From IMG/VR virus record IMGVR_UViG_3300038345_000144: a stretch of DNA of 64,000 nt. One strand, 5' to 3'. Of this stretch, positions 7,192 through 53,144 are shown one piece after another; position 1 is the stretch's first letter, and the number at the start of each line of letters is the position of its first letter. The stretch is from a virus. Taxonomy: Duplodnaviria; Caudoviricetes. The notes beneath the pieces were generated by a model, which was not told where the DNA came from, ran no database searches, and saw only the letters and a list, made by a program, of their open reading frames with translations. The position numbers and the translations under genes were made by a program.

Positions 7192-7793
7192 GATTTGTAC
7201 CTTGAAAACTATATATAAAGAACGAGCCTTCGCTCTACCCGACTATATCTTCACTGTTATTAGGTCACATACGAAGTACAGGCTGTGCAACAGGGAGCTA
7301 CCCTATTACATCTGTACCCCACCTTGCGGTCAAGGTATGGGGGGAGTGCTTACCCCCACCTTTCAGGGACCATTCAGCAATTTCCTAAAGATACATTCGT
7401 AAATGTAAGAAGTTGCCCTTACCCTACTCGGAAAGTTCGCAAGTGTTATATCAGCATTTCTGCTGTTTCACGGCAAATCCCCTTATTGATATTCCCAAAG
7501 GTGTCAAACAGTCATCGGCTAATCGTCCTTTTTGGGTTCTTCTAACCTTTCGGGTTAGCGTCTATTACGGAGACCACTCGCTCTCTACCCTACAATGCAA
7601 TATAGTGAGTGCCATACCTTTTACTTATGACCTTTTGAGTCTTCACCTAACCCATCGCTGAATTAGGTGCGGACCACCTTTACTGGCTATCGTCAGTATC
7701 AGTGCCGAGCACTTTTCGGTATGCCTCGACGAAGGTGGTCAACCCCCGTCTGCATCGAGTTGTAAATTATATACAGATTTCAAGGTGCAAATC
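7192..7793 (-). ncRNA. large (~600 nt) structured ncRNA, ROOL-like candidate
   Basis: No credible ORF; 27-nt terminal arms 7192-7218/7767-7793 pair (24/27 Watson-Crick); many tetraloop hairpins; own promoter and terminator. Confidence 0.7.
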
Positions 7794-7931: not shown

Positions 7932-8486
7932 TTAATCAGTTTTAATTAAAGCCTGAACATCGGCAAGTTCTGTATTTATATAATACCTATAAAAGAACTG
8001 GGTATCATAAGCATTATAGATGTCTCTGGTATAATTTGTGTCCTGATGTTCGCAGTCAGGGCATCCAATCCACGAAATCTCTAAAACATATACATTTCCG
8101 TCATTCGGGAAGATGTCCGACAACTTATATCTTTGACCATTCAGGTTCGCAATATCATATTCGCAGTAGTCATCAAAAGCACTTCCAAGAGGGGTACTGA
8201 CTATGTAATTGTACTGGGCAGTGAATTCCTCAACAGGAATATCTCCTCTTATAAGTCCCAAAACCTTACCTTGTGTGCAAATCAGGTATGAGGGAACCCA
8301 GTTGAGTCCGACACCATCTTCGTTCATCATCCATAAGTCAAAGTCTGACTTGTTTTTAGGATTATCACACACAAAAACGTGAGATTGCACCATTTCGTGA
8401 TGAGGTTCGTAGGTGTTTGGTCTGCCACACGAACATAGCCCGACCACTATTGCCAATGTTAAAAATAATGCTGTTATCTTTCTCAT
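7932..8486 (-). CDS. lipoprotein with circularly permuted thioredoxin/TlpA-like domain
   Basis: Signal peptide with lipobox LCSC; WVPSYLI..GKV...RG precedes NLNGQRYKLSD...WIGCPDC. Confidence 0.6.
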   Translation of the reverse strand: MRKITALFLTLAIVVGLCSCGRPNTYEPHHEMVQSHVFVCDNPKNKSDFDLWMMNEDGVGLNWVPSYLICTQGKVLGLIRGDIPVEEFTAQYNYIVSTPLGSAFDDYCEYDIANLNGQRYKLSDIFPNDGNVYVLEISWIGCPDCEHQDTNYTRDIYNAYDTQFFYRYYINTELADVQALIKTD

Positions 8487-34613: not shown

Positions 34614-35702
34614 TTAAAAGTATTGCATCGCTCCAGCAAACATCTGGGTCTCGATGATTTCATTACCAATTCCAACAAATCCTCTGCACTTAATTTCAGG
34701 TCTGCAAAGGTTGGAAATATCTTTCTCAAACATAAGAGTTGATGCACCGTCATCAAAACCACCCATCAAAATACCCATCTGGATGTTATTCTTCAAATCC
34801 GTACTGATTGTAGAACCAGAAGGTCTGATACATCCGAGTACCAAATGAATACCCGAAGCACGACCCAAACGAGCAAGTGAACCTAATGCAGTCTTAATGG
34901 TATCAACAGCCTTATAATCATCGTTATCCATAAGCAAAGACATCTCATCTACCATAAAGATAATTGTCTTCGGCTGGAAAATTCCATCAACTTTCTTAAT
35001 ATCCTTATCCTTAAAAGGAACACCATTAACCGTAACGCCCTTGAATTTTCCGTCTTTCAAACCGTTAGCCAATTCTTCAATAGTCATAATGGTTTCCCTC
35101 TTGCCGTCGGGATAAAGGGTAAGGTAGTAAGCGTACTTCCTGTCGTCAGTATCAATGTCATACTTAACAGGGAGCAAATTATCAAACTGCAATCTGCCAA
35201 CAGGTGTATCATAATAATCTACCAACACACCTCTATCGCAATTACTGTTACTGACCTTATAGATATTATTAACCCTATTTGCTTCCATCATCCTAAAACG
35301 GGTCATCATAAGTCTCTGGAGAACCTCCAAAGTAGAAGCAACAGCAACAACATCAGTCAATACATCAACAAACCTATGACGGACATCGCCAAAACTTATT
35401 CTGCTCAAGTCAGCACCGACCAACTGGAACTTATTACTAAACTTCGAGATATGGTTAACGATACATCTCTCAACAACATCTCTACCTGAACCTGTGCCTC
35501 CAGCAATTAAAAGTGAAGTGCTGGGGAAAGTGCCATAGTAACCCTTTTCCATCAAATTCTGGTCATTAAGATACCAGCCTACGATTTCTTCTTTACCTTT
35601 AGCATTTAATGTTACTCCCAACGGAACATAAGACCAAGCCTGGTCCTGATTGGGAAACAATAATGCTTCTTTAGTTAAGGTCTTCTTCTTATCTTTGCTC
35701 AT
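34614..35702 (-). CDS. FtsK/SpoIIIE/coupling-protein-like ATPase with degenerate Walker A
   Basis: VPLG, LLIAGGTGSGRD, FMVDE, ARLGRASGIHLVL, KNN. Confidence 0.8.
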   Translation of the reverse strand: MSKDKKKTLTKEALLFPNQDQAWSYVPLGVTLNAKGKEEIVGWYLNDQNLMEKGYYGTFPSTSLLIAGGTGSGRDVVERCIVNHISKFSNKFQLVGADLSRISFGDVRHRFVDVLTDVVAVASTLEVLQRLMMTRFRMMEANRVNNIYKVSNSNCDRGVLVDYYDTPVGRLQFDNLLPVKYDIDTDDRKYAYYLTLYPDGKRETIMTIEELANGLKDGKFKGVTVNGVPFKDKDIKKVDGIFQPKTIIFMVDEMSLLMDNDDYKAVDTIKTALGSLARLGRASGIHLVLGCIRPSGSTISTDLKNNIQMGILMGGFDDGASTLMFEKDISNLCRPEIKCRGFVGIGNEIIETQMFAGAMQYF

Positions 35703-35734: not shown

Positions 35735-36181
35735 TTACTTTGACTTAAAAATACGCCAAGATTTAATCGTGTCCCAGATTGACCCTTTAACTTCAACCAT
35801 TGTGTCAATACTTAACGGGTTATTTTGGATAACACCAGGCAAAATCGTAGCATCGTTTCTCTGGGTACACAAGATACAGTGAATACCCGCAGAACGACCT
35901 AACTGGGTTATGGACTGAATATTACTTAAAATTTCATCTTTAAGAGCGTCTTCTGCCTTACCCTCTGTGGTCTTAATACCTGATTTACCTGTCAACTCCG
36001 CAATCTCATCTACAACGATGAGTAATCTCGGCATATCGTCTGTGCAGATTTTATCCACACAATTCTTATTAACTGGGACCCAGTGTTCATCATCCAAACA
36101 GATGTCCAACTCTGGAGCCACTACGGAAACCTTCTTTGCTTTTGCAGAAGTTCCGCTATCTTGATGGTCTAACCAACCCAT
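35735..36181 (-). CDS. FtsK-like ATPase middle fragment plus short intein N-fragment
   Basis: LLIVVDEIAEL, LGRSAGIH, TQR, IQNN then PLSIDTMVEV (35738-35818). Confidence 0.75.
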   Translation of the reverse strand: MGWLDHQDSGTSAKAKKVSVVAPELDICLDDEHWVPVNKNCVDKICTDDMPRLLIVVDEIAELTGKSGIKTTEGKAEDALKDEILSNIQSITQLGRSAGIHCILCTQRNDATILPGVIQNNPLSIDTMVEVKGSIWDTIKSWRIFKSK

Positions 36182-36201
36182 AAATTCCCTCCTAAAAATT
36201 A

Positions 36202-36456
36202 TTAAGTAACAAGTTGTACTTTTGTCGTCTTGATTTCAAGTACCCTGTTGATTATCAGATTACCGCCATTTTCCTTGATATAGTTCTTGGCACTCAAATA
36301 AGCATCGCACCAAGCAGTCTCTTCAAGTTCAATTACTTCTTCCCAGCGTGGAATTGTTTTTTGTTCTTCGGCGTAGGACTCAACAACATAACCCGACTCA
36401 TCAACGATGTCATAGCGTTCATTAACTACAAAGATTTCACTTTCGGTCTTAATCAT
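36202..36456 (-). CDS. hypothetical protein
   Basis: ORF with RBS. Confidence 0.65.
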   Translation of the reverse strand: MIKTESEIFVVNERYDIVDESGYVVESYAEEQKTIPRWEEVIELEETAWCDAYLSAKNYIKENGGNLIINRVLEIKTTKVQLVT

Positions 36457-36468
36457 ACTGCTTCTCCA

Positions 36469-36912
36469 TTAAGGTAATTTAAGAACATCATATCCTGAAA
36501 GAAAACTGATTATCCTCTCACTCAAATTACACGCTTCTTCTAATAAAGCGATGTACTTTTTGGTGGTAGGAATGTCATAATAAACCGAAGGACTCATACG
36601 AATACCGTGAGTAATCTCAACGCCCTCGTATCTCTGATAATAATGATTATTATTATCAAGTTCATAAACATCAGGGTCAGTGGTTAATTTGATGCTAATG
36701 GCGTGTAAATCAGCCTCACCTTTAGAAACGACTTCGAACTTAATTTCAGTAATCGTTTCTTCCTTATCGTCCTCTTCTTCATAGTCTTCTTTTTCGACTG
36801 TAAGCACTCTGGTTATCTTCCTGAACTCAAAGTTGCCGTTCTCCGAGGCATAAATCACCTCAATATTGCAGTCTTTCTCATCTAAAATTCCAAAGCGTCG
36901 GTATTTTCTCAT
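36469..36912 (-). CDS. hypothetical protein
   Basis: GGAGG RBS. Confidence 0.65.
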   Translation of the reverse strand: MRKYRRFGILDEKDCNIEVIYASENGNFEFRKITRVLTVEKEDYEEEDDKEETITEIKFEVVSKGEADLHAISIKLTTDPDVYELDNNNHYYQRYEGVEITHGIRMSPSVYYDIPTTKKYIALLEEACNLSERIISFLSGYDVLKLP

Positions 36913-36951
36913 CTCTCAAACCTCCGAATTTCTTTACTTTCAATGCTCATT

Positions 36952-36972
36952 TATTATAATTAAATAGTCTTT
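36952..36972 (-). promoter_or_regulatory. 21-bp motif AAAGACTATTTAATTATAATA, copy 1
   Basis: Identical copy at 53213-53233. Confidence 0.55.
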
Positions 36973-36979
36973 CACGAAG

Positions 36980-37011
36980 TAAAAACAGGAAAACCTTTCG
37001 GTTCTCCTGTT
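36980..37011 (-). terminator. intrinsic terminator
   Basis: AACAGGAGAACC-GAAA-GGTTTTCCTGTT plus T-tract. Confidence 0.65.
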
Positions 37012-37017
37012 ACTTGC

Positions 37018-37644
37018 TTAATTAACTGCTGTATAAGGCGGGTGGCAGACATAATTCTTACCATTCCAAGTTATGTGTCCACACAACCATTTCTTACCTT
37101 TGTCTGTACGCAACTCATTAGGGAATGAACACCAATGAAGTCCGTTTTCACCGTCATCATATTGAGCACGGAGTTTATGCTTCGAGTAGTCCTCTACGAT
37201 AGTTACTACATATTTTTGCTGAATAGGTCTATTTAAGGCTGGAGCCTGATATACCGCTTTGGTCTTATCCCAGTCAGTGATAGGGGCAAATTCAAGTGGG
37301 TTCTTATCAGCATCACTTATAGCATAAAGATGAAACTGGGTATAGTCCTTATACTTGGTAGAGTTGGTTACGGGTTTCAGGGTCATAGCCGACTCGTCAT
37401 ATACAGCATATACATCTACGGCTTTGTTGAAGCCAAAAGTATAGCCGAAATAGTCCAAATAATTGAGACCTAACTCCTTAAATACCTTTTCAACATCATA
37501 CTCCAGAAAAACTCCAGGTGGAATGGTAATCCAGTCCTTGAAATTAGAACTCTCTGTACGAACAACAAAGGTCGAACTAAAAGCCACTAATCCTTTTCTG
37601 GTTAAGACAAACTCGCTATCTGTCATCCTGATTATCTGTGACAT
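37018..37644 (-). CDS. hypothetical protein
   Basis: 208-aa ORF, RBS. Confidence 0.7.
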   Translation of the reverse strand: MSQIIRMTDSEFVLTRKGLVAFSSTFVVRTESSNFKDWITIPPGVFLEYDVEKVFKELGLNYLDYFGYTFGFNKAVDVYAVYDESAMTLKPVTNSTKYKDYTQFHLYAISDADKNPLEFAPITDWDKTKAVYQAPALNRPIQQKYVVTIVEDYSKHKLRAQYDDGENGLHWCSFPNELRTDKGKKWLCGHITWNGKNYVCHPPYTAVN

Positions 37645-37817
37645 ATACTTGTCTCCTTCTTACTTAAAAAATCGCTTTGATTTTTTCTCTCATTTCTCTC
37701 TATATTCTCTCTTTATCTGGATATTATCTGGTAGAAATTTCTGGTTAACTATATACACCTATTAACCATTCTTACCTATATCTATACCCATAAATTATGT
37801 AACTTTTTTTGCACATT

Positions 37818-37853
37818 GTTACAATTAGATTACAATGTTACAATTAGATTACA
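37818..37853. repeat. two tandem TGTAAT-N5-TGTAAC boxes
   Basis: GTTACAATTAGATTACA twice at 19-bp period. Confidence 0.75.
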
Positions 37854-38523
37854 TTGGTCCCAATTTCAGTTCGGTCATAATTTTATTTAATTCATACTCC
37901 CAAACTGCTTTGAAAGTACCGAGGGTATCTTTTTCAACGATTTTCTTGCTGGCTTCAAGGAACTCGGTAGGTGTTTCGCAGTTGCTATAACACTCATCTA
38001 ACTCCTTAATAATGTCTTGACTAATCTTAAGTTCTTCTTTGGAATAGTCAGAATAACCATTAGGGTAGATTTGCATTGACTTTTCTATATCAATGTCATT
38101 TCTCTTGAATTTCCAAATAAGACTATAAAGTTTGGACTCTAACAAATAATCCGCATCAGACTGCACTTCATCGTTAGGACCGTCATCAGAAACATCGTTA
38201 ACAATGCCCTGTTCCTCGGCAATCTTCAAAATCCTTCTAACTGCGTAGTCATAAGGCTTACGAGCCGTTTTACAGAAGTTAAATCCTGTTTCAAAATGCT
38301 CACAATCAGTGTTTGGAATAAAGAAGGTTTCGTGTCCGAGGTCGTTTGTTTCAGGACCATTCAACCAAATCCTGTCCATATTAGCAACGGGGCTTCCCTC
38401 ACCAAAACCATCAGCAAGTGATATGCCCTTTGAAGTACAATCGGCTATAATAGCGATTACCTGATTAACAAAATCCTCATCATAAGGCTTATCAGTTCTG
38501 TTCCAGTATCTTGTGTAACCCAT
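37849..38523 (-). CDS. phage-type hypothetical protein
   Basis: MGYTRYW...HETF...FNFCKTARKPYD. Confidence 0.75.
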   Translation of the reverse strand: MGYTRYWNRTDKPYDEDFVNQVIAIIADCTSKGISLADGFGEGSPVANMDRIWLNGPETNDLGHETFFIPNTDCEHFETGFNFCKTARKPYDYAVRRILKIAEEQGIVNDVSDDGPNDEVQSDADYLLESKLYSLIWKFKRNDIDIEKSMQIYPNGYSDYSKEELKISQDIIKELDECYSNCETPTEFLEASKKIVEKDTLGTFKAVWEYELNKIMTELKLGPM

Positions 38524-38534
38524 AAAAAATCTCC

Positions 38535-38705
38535 TTATCTCTCTGTGACATCTCCATCGTCATAAATGCGATAGGTTAAAACATCTCCTCCTGCTCGGCA
38601 GGTAAACTCCCAGAACGACCTGTCCTCATAAGAGTCAACAACCCTATCGGCAGGTGTCTTTTCAAACAAAATCTTCTTTGCTTCTTCTTCATCTAATCTG
38701 CTCAT
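38535..38705 (-). CDS. small hypothetical protein (56 aa)
   Basis: Not in track; coupled to upstream stop; MSRLDEEEAKK... Confidence 0.55.
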   Translation of the reverse strand: MSRLDEEEAKKILFEKTPADRVVDSYEDRSFWEFTCRAGGDVLTYRIYDDGDVTER

Positions 38706-38944
38706 TAGAAATATACCTCGTCGATTGCTACATCATAAACAACGGCTCCTTCTTCCTGCAAACGAGCCTTCAAACCTTTTTCAGAGTCGTCAACAGCATC
38801 AAACCATATACCTCGTTCGTCAGCCTCAACCCACACAGCAGTAACATCATCACAAATTTCCTGAATTTCGTCTACTGTTAAGTTGTCAACTACGCAAAGT
38901 AATTCTTTGGTGTCTTTATCATATACAGGTACTAATCCTCTCAT
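38705..38944 (-). CDS. hypothetical protein
   Basis: ORF with RBS. Confidence 0.65.
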   Translation of the reverse strand: MRGLVPVYDKDTKELLCVVDNLTVDEIQEICDDVTAVWVEADERGIWFDAVDDSEKGLKARLQEEGAVVYDVAIDEVYF

Positions 38945-38983
38945 AAAATGTCTCCTTTATTGTTATTTAATAAAAATATATTG

Positions 38984-39148
38984 TTAATCAATATAAATCT
39001 CCGCAGGAATGTCTCCTACCTCGTCGTGAAATTCTCCTGCTTCATCGTAATATTTGATGTCGCACCAGTTGTTTTCTTTTATCTCGATACTAACAACTTT
39101 AGGAAATTCCCACTGCCTACCATCTTTGTCAATAAGTCTAACTTTCAT
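38984..39148 (-). CDS. small hypothetical protein (54 aa)
   Basis: Not in track; AAGGGGG RBS; MKVRLIDKDGRQW... Confidence 0.55.
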   Translation of the reverse strand: MKVRLIDKDGRQWEFPKVVSIEIKENNWCDIKYYDEAGEFHDEVGDIPAEIYID

Positions 39149-39160
39149 TGGTCATCCCCC

Positions 39161-39583
39161 TTAAATTTCCTCGAACTTCTGGTCTTTACGCTTATCAATC
39201 TCGGCGTGTTCGCCATCGAAATCAATAACGGTCTTATCATTGAAGTTACCAAGTTCTTCCTCGCCTCCGAGTTCTTCCTCTGCGAGTTCCTGCTTGTTTC
39301 TGTAACCCAATTCGTCCAGACCTCTCTGCTTGAAATAGGTGTCAGTTATCCACTTCTGCTGTTCAAAGTAATACTGAACACGGGAAATCTGACCCTGCAT
39401 CTTGGTAATACCAGCACCCTTATGCGTACCATCAATAGTAGTAGCAAGAGTGGAGTTCAAAGCCATCATAGAGGCAGTTGTTTCCAGACGACCTGCAACG
39501 ATTTTCGCCGCACAATTATGTGTAAATATAGCATCTTCAGGTATCTGGACCTGCTTGCATTTATTTTTGTTAATCTTAATCAT
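39161..39583 (-). CDS. short intein C-fragment plus FtsK-like ATPase C-terminal fragment
   Basis: MIKINKNKCKQV...IFTHN|CAAKIVAGRL; remainder aligns gap-free with C-terminus of 34614-35702. Confidence 0.7.
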   Translation of the reverse strand: MIKINKNKCKQVQIPEDAIFTHNCAAKIVAGRLETTASMMALNSTLATTIDGTHKGAGITKMQGQISRVQYYFEQQKWITDTYFKQRGLDELGYRNKQELAEEELGGEEELGNFNDKTVIDFDGEHAEIDKRKDQKFEEI

Positions 39584-39672
39584 AAGCAAAATTCCTTTCA
39601 ACTTATTTTACTAATATTTCATACCGTAGTTTGTTGAAAAAGTTAGTCACTATTTTCAACTACCACCATAGG

Positions 39673-52298: not shown

Positions 52299-52547
52299 TT
52301 ACGCAAATCTTACAAAATTACCCTCATCGACAACCGTTAAATAATCATCACACTCATCTTCAGGGAAAGTCTGGTCCGTTCCATAGCAAATTTTACCTTT
52401 AGGATTAGTGTCGGTAATATATTCACGGTCATACTCAATTGAGTCAATTTTCAGGATATGCTCAATATAATCGTGGGTATATTGGTCGTAACATACCACG
52501 CAGTCGCCTACTTTAATGTCTAAAAATGTCTTTTCTTCTCTCTGCAT
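52299..52547 (-). CDS. hypothetical protein
   Basis: ORF with RBS. Confidence 0.65.
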   Translation of the reverse strand: MQREEKTFLDIKVGDCVVCYDQYTHDYIEHILKIDSIEYDREYITDTNPKGKICYGTDQTFPEDECDDYLTVVDEGNFVRFA

Positions 52548-52559
52548 AATAAATTCTCC

Positions 52560-53144
52560 TTAATCTAAATAACCGTAACAAATATCTTTTACTTCACCGT
52601 TACTCATTAAAACCTTTGAAAAATCACCAGTACCGTTACCCCACGGACCACAATATTGATAACTTGCTACCTCGATAACCTCGCCTTTTCTCCAGCGAGC
52701 CATTTTCTCGACTTTAGCCTCTCTTGCCATACCGCCGTAAAAATCTCCATTAACTCCCTTTTCAGCATCAGTTATTGCTTTATTCAGGAACATTTCGATT
52801 TCTTCTTCTGTCAAAGGTCTGCCCTCATAATTAGAGAAATCATACTTGGCATTTTCACGCTCAACTTCTTCTCTTGCCTGCTGGTGTAATACCTTGAGCC
52901 TTTCCCACTCTTTCTTTGTCAAAGAACGATAAGGCTCGCTTAACGCATAATCACTTAAATAAAAACCTGCAAAAGTATGCTTATGTCCAGAGTCCTGCCA
53001 GCCATAAGTAACCTTTTCTGCATATTTAAGAATTTCAGCGTCGGTGGTCATTTCACCAAATCCTCTTGAGGCAAAAATAAATTCATCACGGGAATATACT
53101 GCTTTTCCATTAACATAACCATATACATTAGGGTCGTGTTCCAT
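52560..53144 (-). CDS. hypothetical protein
   Basis: AAGGAGG RBS. Confidence 0.7.
   Translation of the reverse strand: MEHDPNVYGYVNGKAVYSRDEFIFASRGFGEMTTDAEILKYAEKVTYGWQDSGHKHTFAGFYLSDYALSEPYRSLTKKEWERLKVLHQQAREEVERENAKYDFSNYEGRPLTEEEIEMFLNKAITDAEKGVNGDFYGGMAREAKVEKMARWRKGEVIEVASYQYCGPWGNGTGDFSKVLMSNGEVKDICYGYLD

Follow-up and report, generated by a model that had tools for sequence, protein, structure and literature searches.

The question raised by the 64,000-nucleotide (nt) stretch of tailed-virus DNA studied here (Duplodnaviria; Caudoviricetes; IMG/VR record IMGVR_UViG_3300038345_000144; the whole stretch is referred to below as the window) is why two of its genes, each encoding only a part of an FtsK-like ATPase, carry short additional peptides at the ends by which these parts would be joined. 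A preliminary description of the locus, made from the sequence alone, interpreted these peptides as the ends of a class 3 intein split in nature, so short that they would either need a third, trans-acting middle piece or serve as a non-splicing docking module. Results of our analysis indicate that the two genes of this giant rumen phage, designated ORF A and ORF B (ORF, open reading frame), are probably the extein-bearing fragments of a class 3 intein that is broken at two loops and distributed over three genes, the third of which encodes a free-standing middle piece, designated IntM. As judged from its sequence, this looks like the first natural three-piece intein.

Both genes are encoded on the minus strand, as is every gene around them in this AT-rich, phage-like window. 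ORF A (35735-36181; 148 amino acids (aa); stop codon at 35735-35737) matches the PF01580 FtsK_SpoIIIE profile at positions 168-218 of 221 only (E 9e-4), i.e., in the last quarter of the family, from the Walker B motif to the TQR motif, and was thus correctly recognized at the outset as only this part of the ATPase. Its N-extein, residues 1-121 (35819-36181), extends from Walker B to TQR...IQNN of an FtsK/SpoIIIE-like ATPase. Past ...VIQNN there are 27 additional residues (PLSIDTMVEVKGSIWDTIKSWRIFKSK, 35738-35818), beginning with PLSIDTMVEV and followed by the stop codon. The first 12 of them (PLSIDTMVEVKG, 35783-35818), referred to as the IntN core, represent intein block A from Pro1 onwards, without an N-terminal nucleophile, and the remaining 15 (SIWDTIKSWRIFKSK, 35738-35782) form a tail extension that is limited to the window lineage and a few others. 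ORF B spans 39161-39601 in the list of ORFs, and public gene calls start it at the ATG at 39583 (140 aa). Its first 23 residues (IntC, 39515-39583) comprise a Lys-rich leader (MIKINKNKCKQVQIPED) and block G, AIFTHN (39515-39532); the whole N-terminus reads MIKINKNKCKQVQIPEDAIFTHN, then CAAKIVAGRLE. The C-extein (39161-39514) starts with Cys+1 (39512-39514) and includes the C-terminal domain of the ATPase and the stop codon. The 27-aa tail and the 23-aa leader thus have the positions and sequences first assigned to them. As ORF B lies 3 kb upstream of ORF A on the shared minus strand, the order of the two genes is permuted.

Two comparisons show where the additional segments belong. The first concerns an FtsK-like paralogue without a split, immediately downstream of ORF A (34614-35702, minus strand; PF01580 E 2e-9), which is not part of the split protein. 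The BLASTP alignment of ORF A with this paralogue stops at NN121, equivalent to NN306 (E 1e-5); therefore, the tail starts exactly at the end of extein homology. The preliminary description had aligned both joined halves with the paralogue without gaps, and this holds on the side of ORF A, which ends at NN, but not for the ORF B extein, whose BLASTP comparison with the paralogue was not significant (best E 3.9, in the wrong region). The second comparison is with P0338, a complete, membrane-anchored FtsK-like protein of 746 aa that has an intact P-loop with uninterrupted GGGKS, holds Walker A, Walker B and TQR in one chain, and carries a contiguous 145-aa intein at 480-624 (SN/PLALDTLVET...THQW...VCITT...IYTHN/C; slashes denote junctions here and below). 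In BLASTP alignments, ORF A residues 25-144 correspond to P0338 383-502 (E 8e-38; the extein part, 25-121, to 383-479), residues 1-122 of the IntM protein P0078 to 493-618 (E 5e-19), and ORF B residues 17-140 to 618-746 (E 1e-25), with the IntN core equivalent to intein residues 1-12. Hence, P0338 is tiled end to end by ORF A, IntM and ORF B, and the exteins of ORF A and ORF B become contiguous in it once the intein is removed. The additional segments were expected to sit at one junction, and in P0338 a contiguous intein lies exactly between them; relatives with such an intein at this site (NN or SN before it, Cys after it), the existence of which had been suggested as a check, are represented by P0338 and the similar protein P0340.

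The middle piece was identified in related phages. Peptide-guided scans of IMG/VR revealed homologues of ORF A and ORF B in five jumbo-phage genomes (G001-G005; 250-467 kb, CheckV completeness 100%). The profile used to search all stop-to-stop ORFs of three complete genomes was built from a contiguous class 3-like intein that is located in the P-loop of the Walker-A piece of this ATPase; custom profiles were needed because Pfam intein models, which found other inteins in the related genomes and barely detected the contiguous P-loop intein, missed IntM. Each of the three genomes contained a free ORF of ~120 aa, and a protein search revealed exactly one in each of the five genomes. IntM starts with MKK-x-I-x-D-[IV]-K-x-GD, which is the intein segment following block A, continues through block B (C-S-x-T-H-Q-W) to block F (V-Q-C-I-T-T-D-x-x-D-x-Q-F-x-I-Y) and ends a few residues later, having neither block A, nor block G, nor exteins. 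All 76 IntM homologues found in metagenomes are 75-137 aa long, the proteins searched being restricted to 66-210 aa. The best match of an IntM profile of 71 sequences among solved structures was the class 3 DnaB1 intein of Mycobacterium chimaera (6rix/6riy, E 7.6e-10), and the class 3 intein of M. smegmatis (6bs8) was matched with E 8.5e-8; these entries have been described as mycobacterial DnaB1 class 3 inteins (PMC7664689). As IntM position 4 aligns to residue 16 of the DnaB1 intein and its block F to residues 110-134 of 145, what IntM lacks of a class 3 mini-intein is only the first ~12 and the last ~6-10 residues. The absent segments are those carried by ORF A and ORF B.

An exhaustive search with the IntM profile disclosed a series of arrangements at this insertion site. 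In addition to the contiguous inteins, there are proteins split at the C-side loop only (P0334 and P0346), which consist of the N-extein, IntN and IntM and stop after block F, and proteins split at the N-side loop only (P0332, P0335, P0336, P0348, P0353, P0356, P0363, P0365 and P0366), which begin with IntM and continue through IntC into the C-extein. The split at both loops is found in the window and in G001-G005. In the AlphaFold2 model of the P0338 intein (predicted local distance difference test (pLDDT) 94.5, predicted template modelling score (pTM) 0.88), both natural breaks fall in loops between beta-strands (residues 15-18 and 139-143), and the top Foldseek matches of this model are class 3 DnaB inteins (6bs8, template modelling score 0.86 by target). 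The genome of G005 still encodes the pieces collinearly: a stretch of 18.5 kb on one strand contains the Walker-A piece with a middle fragment of its own, then piece 2, ORF A and IntM, and, after two genes unrelated to them, a homing-endonuclease gene of the Zn-finger type and finally ORF B. This collinearity points to an ancestral contiguous gene that was fragmented by insertions and then dispersed.

IntM is under strong purifying selection, with pairwise ratios of nonsynonymous to synonymous substitutions (dN/dS) of 0.04-0.43 at saturated dS (>1). One could consider the three genes to be pseudogenes, the decaying remnants of an old intein gene broken by rearrangements or mobile elements; the locus family is indeed rich in homing-endonuclease genes and group II introns and includes a TnpB-like gene, and the gene order in the window is scrambled. 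However, such selection on IntM, the retention of the 12-residue tail through synonymous change, and the intactness of the three genes in all five complete genomes and in many metagenomic strains make this explanation very unlikely.

The conservation of the short intein ends was assessed in a wider set of sequences. Searches of large databases yielded 207 homologues of ORF A and 144 of ORF B, of which the best 120 of each were retrieved, and the final alignments comprised 74 ORF A, 55 ORF B and 71 IntM sequences. In ORF A, residues Q119, N120, N121, P122 and T127 are invariant, and L123, V129, E130 and K132 are conserved in at least 90% of the homologues. The tail is just 12 residues long in G001-G005 (NN/PLSIDTLVEVK[ED]-stop; in G005, SN/PLSLDTLVEIEE-stop), and most ORF A homologues stop right after it. 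Thus, the 27-aa end described for the window exists as such, but only its first ~12 residues represent the universal N-fragment. Related tails of 26-37 aa occur repeatedly and preserve an amphipathic pattern (e.g., KEPFWEKIKSWR[IV]FKTK), the 15-aa extension being conserved within a subfamily. The 12 IntN codons vary between phages almost only synonymously, including switches between the Ser codons AGT, AGC and TCA, which rules out conservation at the RNA level.

The last observation bears on the idea that the ORF A tail results from read-through into an intron or another inserted element. Read-through of this kind does account for other short tails (TQR/CETF.., LPG/CDLL.. and SITQ/VRDV..), which run into the GUGCG start of ORF-less group II introns and are not intein ends. 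In the case of the window, though, no intron match was found near ORF A or ORF B, the tail is conserved as protein and not as RNA, and it matches block A of a contiguous intein; moreover, the corresponding tail of G003 (NN-PLSIDTLVEVKD) is encoded in the exon that follows the intron. The probability of this explanation is practically negligible. The ORF-less group II introns themselves, of ~590 nt (Rfam RF02004, RF00029), interrupt the ORF A homologues of G003 and G004 (L003 8389-8968; L004 8325-8916 and 9587-10161).

In the 55 ORF B sequences, no variation was seen at H22, N23 and C24, and conservation at F20 and T21 is at least 90%; in G001-G005 the leader terminates as [MA][IV]FTHN/C. The leaders, 13-35 aa in length, are rich in Lys, their net charge averages +3, and no Cys is conserved among them. 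The functional C-fragment would, therefore, be essentially the last 6 leader residues (x-I/V-F-T-H-N). The conservation of the tail and leader motifs across the 74 ORF A and 55 ORF B homologues indicates that they did not arise by chance. The preliminary description had also placed the block-F Cys in the ORF B leader. Such a Cys (KNKCKQ), 15 residues before the terminal Asn, is indeed present in the window, but it is missing from almost all of the 54 other leaders and can be regarded as incidental, since the other leaders have no conserved Cys; the true block-F Cys is C104 of IntM. For the same reason we give very little credence to a self-sufficient two-piece intein in which the ~50 residues of both ends would splice alone with the leader Cys as the block-F nucleophile. 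The position of this Cys and the partial activity of one engineered three-piece system without its middle fragment (bioRxiv 10.1101/2023.01.30.526203) would agree with it. Neither end, however, contains a block B His, most relatives have just 12 and ~6 core residues, and a dedicated, conserved IntM gene exists.

The need for a third, trans-acting piece, one of the two outcomes initially envisaged, is supported by the occurrence of IntM as a separate gene in all five complete genomes and, in a strain with 95% identity to the window, on the same contig as ORF A and ORF B, and by the contiguous inteins that relatives have at this site. A megablast comparison of the region with GenBank phages gave no match, and an exact-word scan of JGI metagenome contigs also had no hit. 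The exact ORF B protein, however, is present on many rumen-metagenome contigs. Two of these are an ENA scaffold of 407,848 bp (L094) and a Logan contig of 178,316 bp (L095), whose identities to the window are 97% and 95%, respectively. The latter encodes IntM (P0085) at 65.8 kb and, ~70 kb away at 136.4 kb and in the same orientation, the exact ORF B of the window; ORF A is present as well. P0085 belongs to a cluster of 123-aa IntM proteins (P0072, P0077-P0090) with the motifs SSDIHLW and PVMCITTD, and another member of this cluster, P0078, was found together with the exact ORF B in four samples.

The elements that define a class 3 intein can be located in these three proteins. The Hint fold is indicated by the profile match of IntM, the AlphaFold2 model of the contiguous relative with its Foldseek matches, and the tiling of P0338. 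Position 1 is not Cys, Ser or Thr but the invariant Pro122 of ORF A, as in the class 3 DnaB intein of mycobacteriophage Bethlehem, which also starts with Pro1 (PMC2807308). The Trp-Cys-Thr triplet is composed of W55 (block B position 12) and C104 (block F position 4) of IntM and T21 (block G position 5) of ORF B, and is thus spread over two polypeptides; H53, W55 and C104 are invariant in the 71 IntM sequences. The block B His is H53, the C-terminal His-Asn pair is H22-N23, and the +1 nucleophile is C24. A location of block B at the N-terminus of ORF A was rejected, as this part aligns to extein sequence of P0338 and block B resides on IntM. Other class 3 features noticed at the beginning, namely, the PLxxxTxV start, T-H-N and the nucleophile that follows it, are likewise conserved in the homologues. 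ORF A and ORF B are encoded separately and each carries one extein of a single host protein, and the middle piece is extein-free.

Beyond the observed gene anatomy, homology, conservation, co-occurrence of the pieces and evolutionary series, we infer an assembly and a splicing chemistry that would follow the class 3 pathway (PMC2807308, PMC7664689). IntN, IntM and IntC would assemble into one Hint fold, in which the initial beta-strands would come from IntN and the final one from IntC. With activation by His53 and Trp55, Cys104 of IntM would attack the Asn121-Pro122 bond of ORF A to form the first branched thioester, and the N-extein would then be transferred to Cys+1 of ORF B. Cyclization of Asn23 and an S-to-N shift would yield ...VIQNN-CAAKIVAGR... 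in one chain of about 238 aa, with NDATILPGVIQNNCAAK as the predicted junction peptide. The spliced chain would restore the C-terminal half of the FtsK-like ATPase and would pair with a separate Walker-A half. The IntM tails are mildly acidic and the IntC leaders Lys-rich, and these opposite charges may help fragment capture. A three-chain prediction for ORF A residues 45-148, ORF B residues 1-90 and IntM as the partner gave a median score of 0.43 (runs 0.65, 0.37 and 0.43; best control 0.02), with a partner pLDDT of at least 71 and agreement of the runs in at least 77% of contacts, and was graded as weak support. In the calibration of these scores, 58 of 80 solved complexes reached the mark, compared with 2 of 110 mismatched pairs, and scores of 0.60 or less were obtained for only 7 of the 80 solved complexes and for both mismatches; the result was not counted either way.

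Several points weigh against splicing by three pieces. A three-body assembly that relies on 12 and ~6 core residues should be kinetically weak, and engineered inteins cut close to the N terminus (S1) or to the C terminus (S11) are active in only about half of the cases (PMC11766414). The +1 residue is Cys here, although this position is almost always occupied by Ser or Thr in inteins of class 3 (PMC2807308). The search of the ORFs of the 64,000-nt window with IntM and intein profiles did not reveal IntM, and the data on this lineage outside the window come from strains 95-97% identical to it. The 15-aa extension of ORF A overlaps the first ~10 residues of P0338 that are covered by the N-terminus of IntM. 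In the ORF B homologues P0273, P0275 and P0281, T-H-N has been lost and the leaders end with RIIS/C or TRFS/C; they appear, judging by these ends, to represent lineages whose C-fragment lost the catalytic His-Asn. Finally, TAG-led inserts or a frameshift occur in G002-G004 at a distance of five codons past the junction (ATT TAG ATC in G002, ATT TAG GTC in G003, and in G004 a frame-shifting insert of 16 nt with GTA on both flanks). As a few lineages lost T-H-N and G002-G004 carry these changes, some phages may not need ligation.

The TAG-led inserts (L010 ~8019-8072; L011 ~8004-8057; L108 1407-1560; G001 52781-52894) could represent read-through, short translational bypassing or a repair scar. 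The pattern ATT TAG CTC occurs also in piece 2 of G001, and other homologues have in-frame inserts led by CAG (Gln) at the same post-junction spot. A search of G001, G002 and G005 for a suppressor tRNA that could explain the in-frame TAG codons found none. We also considered TAG and the next codon as a stop/start pair and rejected it, the next codons being GTC, ATC and CTC.

Because some lineages are devoid of the leader T-H-N and others interrupt ORF B just after the junction, the split ATPase may work unligated, and the second outcome envisaged at the beginning has to be weighed: the fragments with their short ends would be a docking module that holds the ATPase pieces together non-covalently or only cleaves, with the intein chemistry unused. 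It also speaks for this view that the Walker-A half and ORF A adjoin by a plain split with no intein signature. Docking, however, would need neither a terminal Asn nor Cys+1 nor a block-F Cys, and His53, Trp55, Cys104, Thr21, His22, Asn23, Cys+1 and Pro1 are all invariant or nearly so in dozens of diverged sequences. We therefore regard a non-splicing docking module as unlikely, and a class 3 intein split into three genes as the probable identity of the system.

In the relatives, Walker A is encoded apart from ORF A, which itself carries Walker B and TQR, in a membrane-anchored protein of 421-440 aa (L037 1093-2355, minus strand; L038 688-2007, plus strand; G005 72870-74168, minus strand). As noted in the preliminary description, the Walker-A piece is absent from the window: none was found among the window ORFs. 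The Walker-A piece of the relatives contains a contiguous class 3-like intein inside its P-loop (G[SA]/PLGL[DN]T...VRC...Y[TI][YR][NQ]/TGGGK), and five residues past this intein there is a short N-fragment of a second three-piece intein, which gives two inteins in one P-loop. At this second site (GGGK/S) in G001 and G002, the Walker-A piece ends with GGGK/AIYI[ED]Q.VEV..., the next extein piece begins with M-STNKGLISHN/S, and the remaining intein, with block F in it (LPCFCISTNTGKYET-stop), comes from a free gene of 194 aa; the break of G005 is located before block F instead. The three-piece design is, therefore, found at two sites of one protein in related phages.

Mobile elements are frequent in this locus family. 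Endonuclease genes similar to that of G003 described below flank many pieces of the split ATPase in G001-G005. In G005, a 408-aa TnpB/OrfB-like transposon-associated gene (63790-65013, minus strand) and an endonuclease-like gene lie immediately upstream of extein piece 2. In G003, a Zn-finger homing-endonuclease-like ORF (L003 9035-10102, plus strand) is located directly downstream of ORF A, and its end is a diverged duplicate of the last 17 residues of ORF A (..LVQNNPLSADTLVKTKD-stop), which looks like a partial target duplication.

The surroundings of the two genes in the window can be described briefly. Between ORF A and ORF B there are seven unrelated small ORFs (36202-39148, minus strand), none of them Hint-like or endonuclease-like; they had no significant Pfam match and no match to the intein or IntM profiles. 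A window ORF at 52302-52559 that scored as an IntM candidate (E 0.056) was rejected, as its match covers only ~27 N-terminal profile positions and it contains neither HxW nor block F. In the unsplit paralogue, Walker A reads GGTGSGRD, with Arg replacing the usual Lys, and CIRP replaces TQRP; going by these motifs, this protein may be catalytically impaired. The window also encodes a full-length ROOL RNA (7205-7783, minus strand; RF03087, 324.7 bits, E 8.6e-74).

Our full-text literature searches found only engineered three-piece inteins and no report of a natural one. One of them is the Ssp DnaB mini-intein, reportedly cut into three pieces near its N terminus (S1) and near its C terminus (S11) (Sun, Yang and Liu, 2004). 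Inteins are known as products of one gene or two, and their three-way fragmentation has not been proven in nature, whereas three-fragment versions of the inteins Rma DnaB, Npu DnaE and gp41-1 have been engineered (bioRxiv 10.1101/2023.01.30.526203, 2023). The engineered systems resemble the one described here in their N-fragment of ~11-12 residues, C-fragment of ~6 core residues, extein-free middle and use of the same two loops. They differ in being laboratory products of class 1, while the system of the window is natural, of class 3, present in many phages, and has pieces up to ~70 kb apart.

Among natural inteins, AceL NrdHF is the sole reported split intein of class 3 (PMC7891396). It is also phage-like, with no N-terminal nucleophile, a block-F Cys, a branched thioester and a fractured-gene context with a homing endonuclease, but it consists of two pieces (98 and 48 aa), the canonical endonuclease site being the point of separation, and its triplet is a deviant Met-Cys-Thr, while the intein of the window consists of three pieces separated at S1- and S11-type loops and has the canonical Trp-Cys-Thr. 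The contiguous class 3 mini-inteins of mycobacterial DnaB1 (6bs8, 6rix, 6riy) share HQW in block B, xRC in block F and a size of ~145 aa; they reside in DnaB and are followed by Ser/Thr+1, in contrast to the three genes, FtsK-like ATPase and Cys+1 found here. In the case of AceL-TerL (25 aa), GOS-TerL (37 aa) and VidaL (PDB 6vgv), which also come from phage metagenomes, a very short IntN completes a large, partially folded partner; these are, however, two-piece inteins of class 1 with the large fragment fused to the C-extein, as in P0332 and P0335. The contiguous class 3 intein of Burkholderia vietnamiensis IcmO, likened to that of the window by description only, is presented as the single class 3 intein with Cys+1, and its host, a coupling protein, is an ATPase of the same broad superfamily (PMC2807308). 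The fractured genes described by Dassa et al. (2009, PMC2677866) have a free-standing homing-endonuclease gene between their halves, and G005 has one directly upstream of ORF B; the window differs in having two breaks, dispersed and reordered pieces, and no endonuclease gene between them.

If this assignment is correct, a 12-residue N tag and a C core of ~6 residues would constitute a naturally optimized tool for semisynthesis, internal labelling and three-input logic. With regard to phage biology, it is conceivable, as IntM lies ~70 kb from the extein genes, that IntM acts as a diffusible, separately transcribed splicing factor whose expression times the covalent completion of the membrane-anchored FtsK-like motor; we put this forward as a tentative and rather doubtful possibility, which, if true, would make it a natural three-input protein AND gate. 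With regard to intein evolution, a natural three-piece intein would mean that evolution can break the Hint fold at two loops and yet retain selection, and the contiguous, N-side-only and C-side-only intermediates would document the route to three pieces. It would also account for the orphan free-standing Hint genes and the truncated ATPase fragments in the genomes of jumbo phages.

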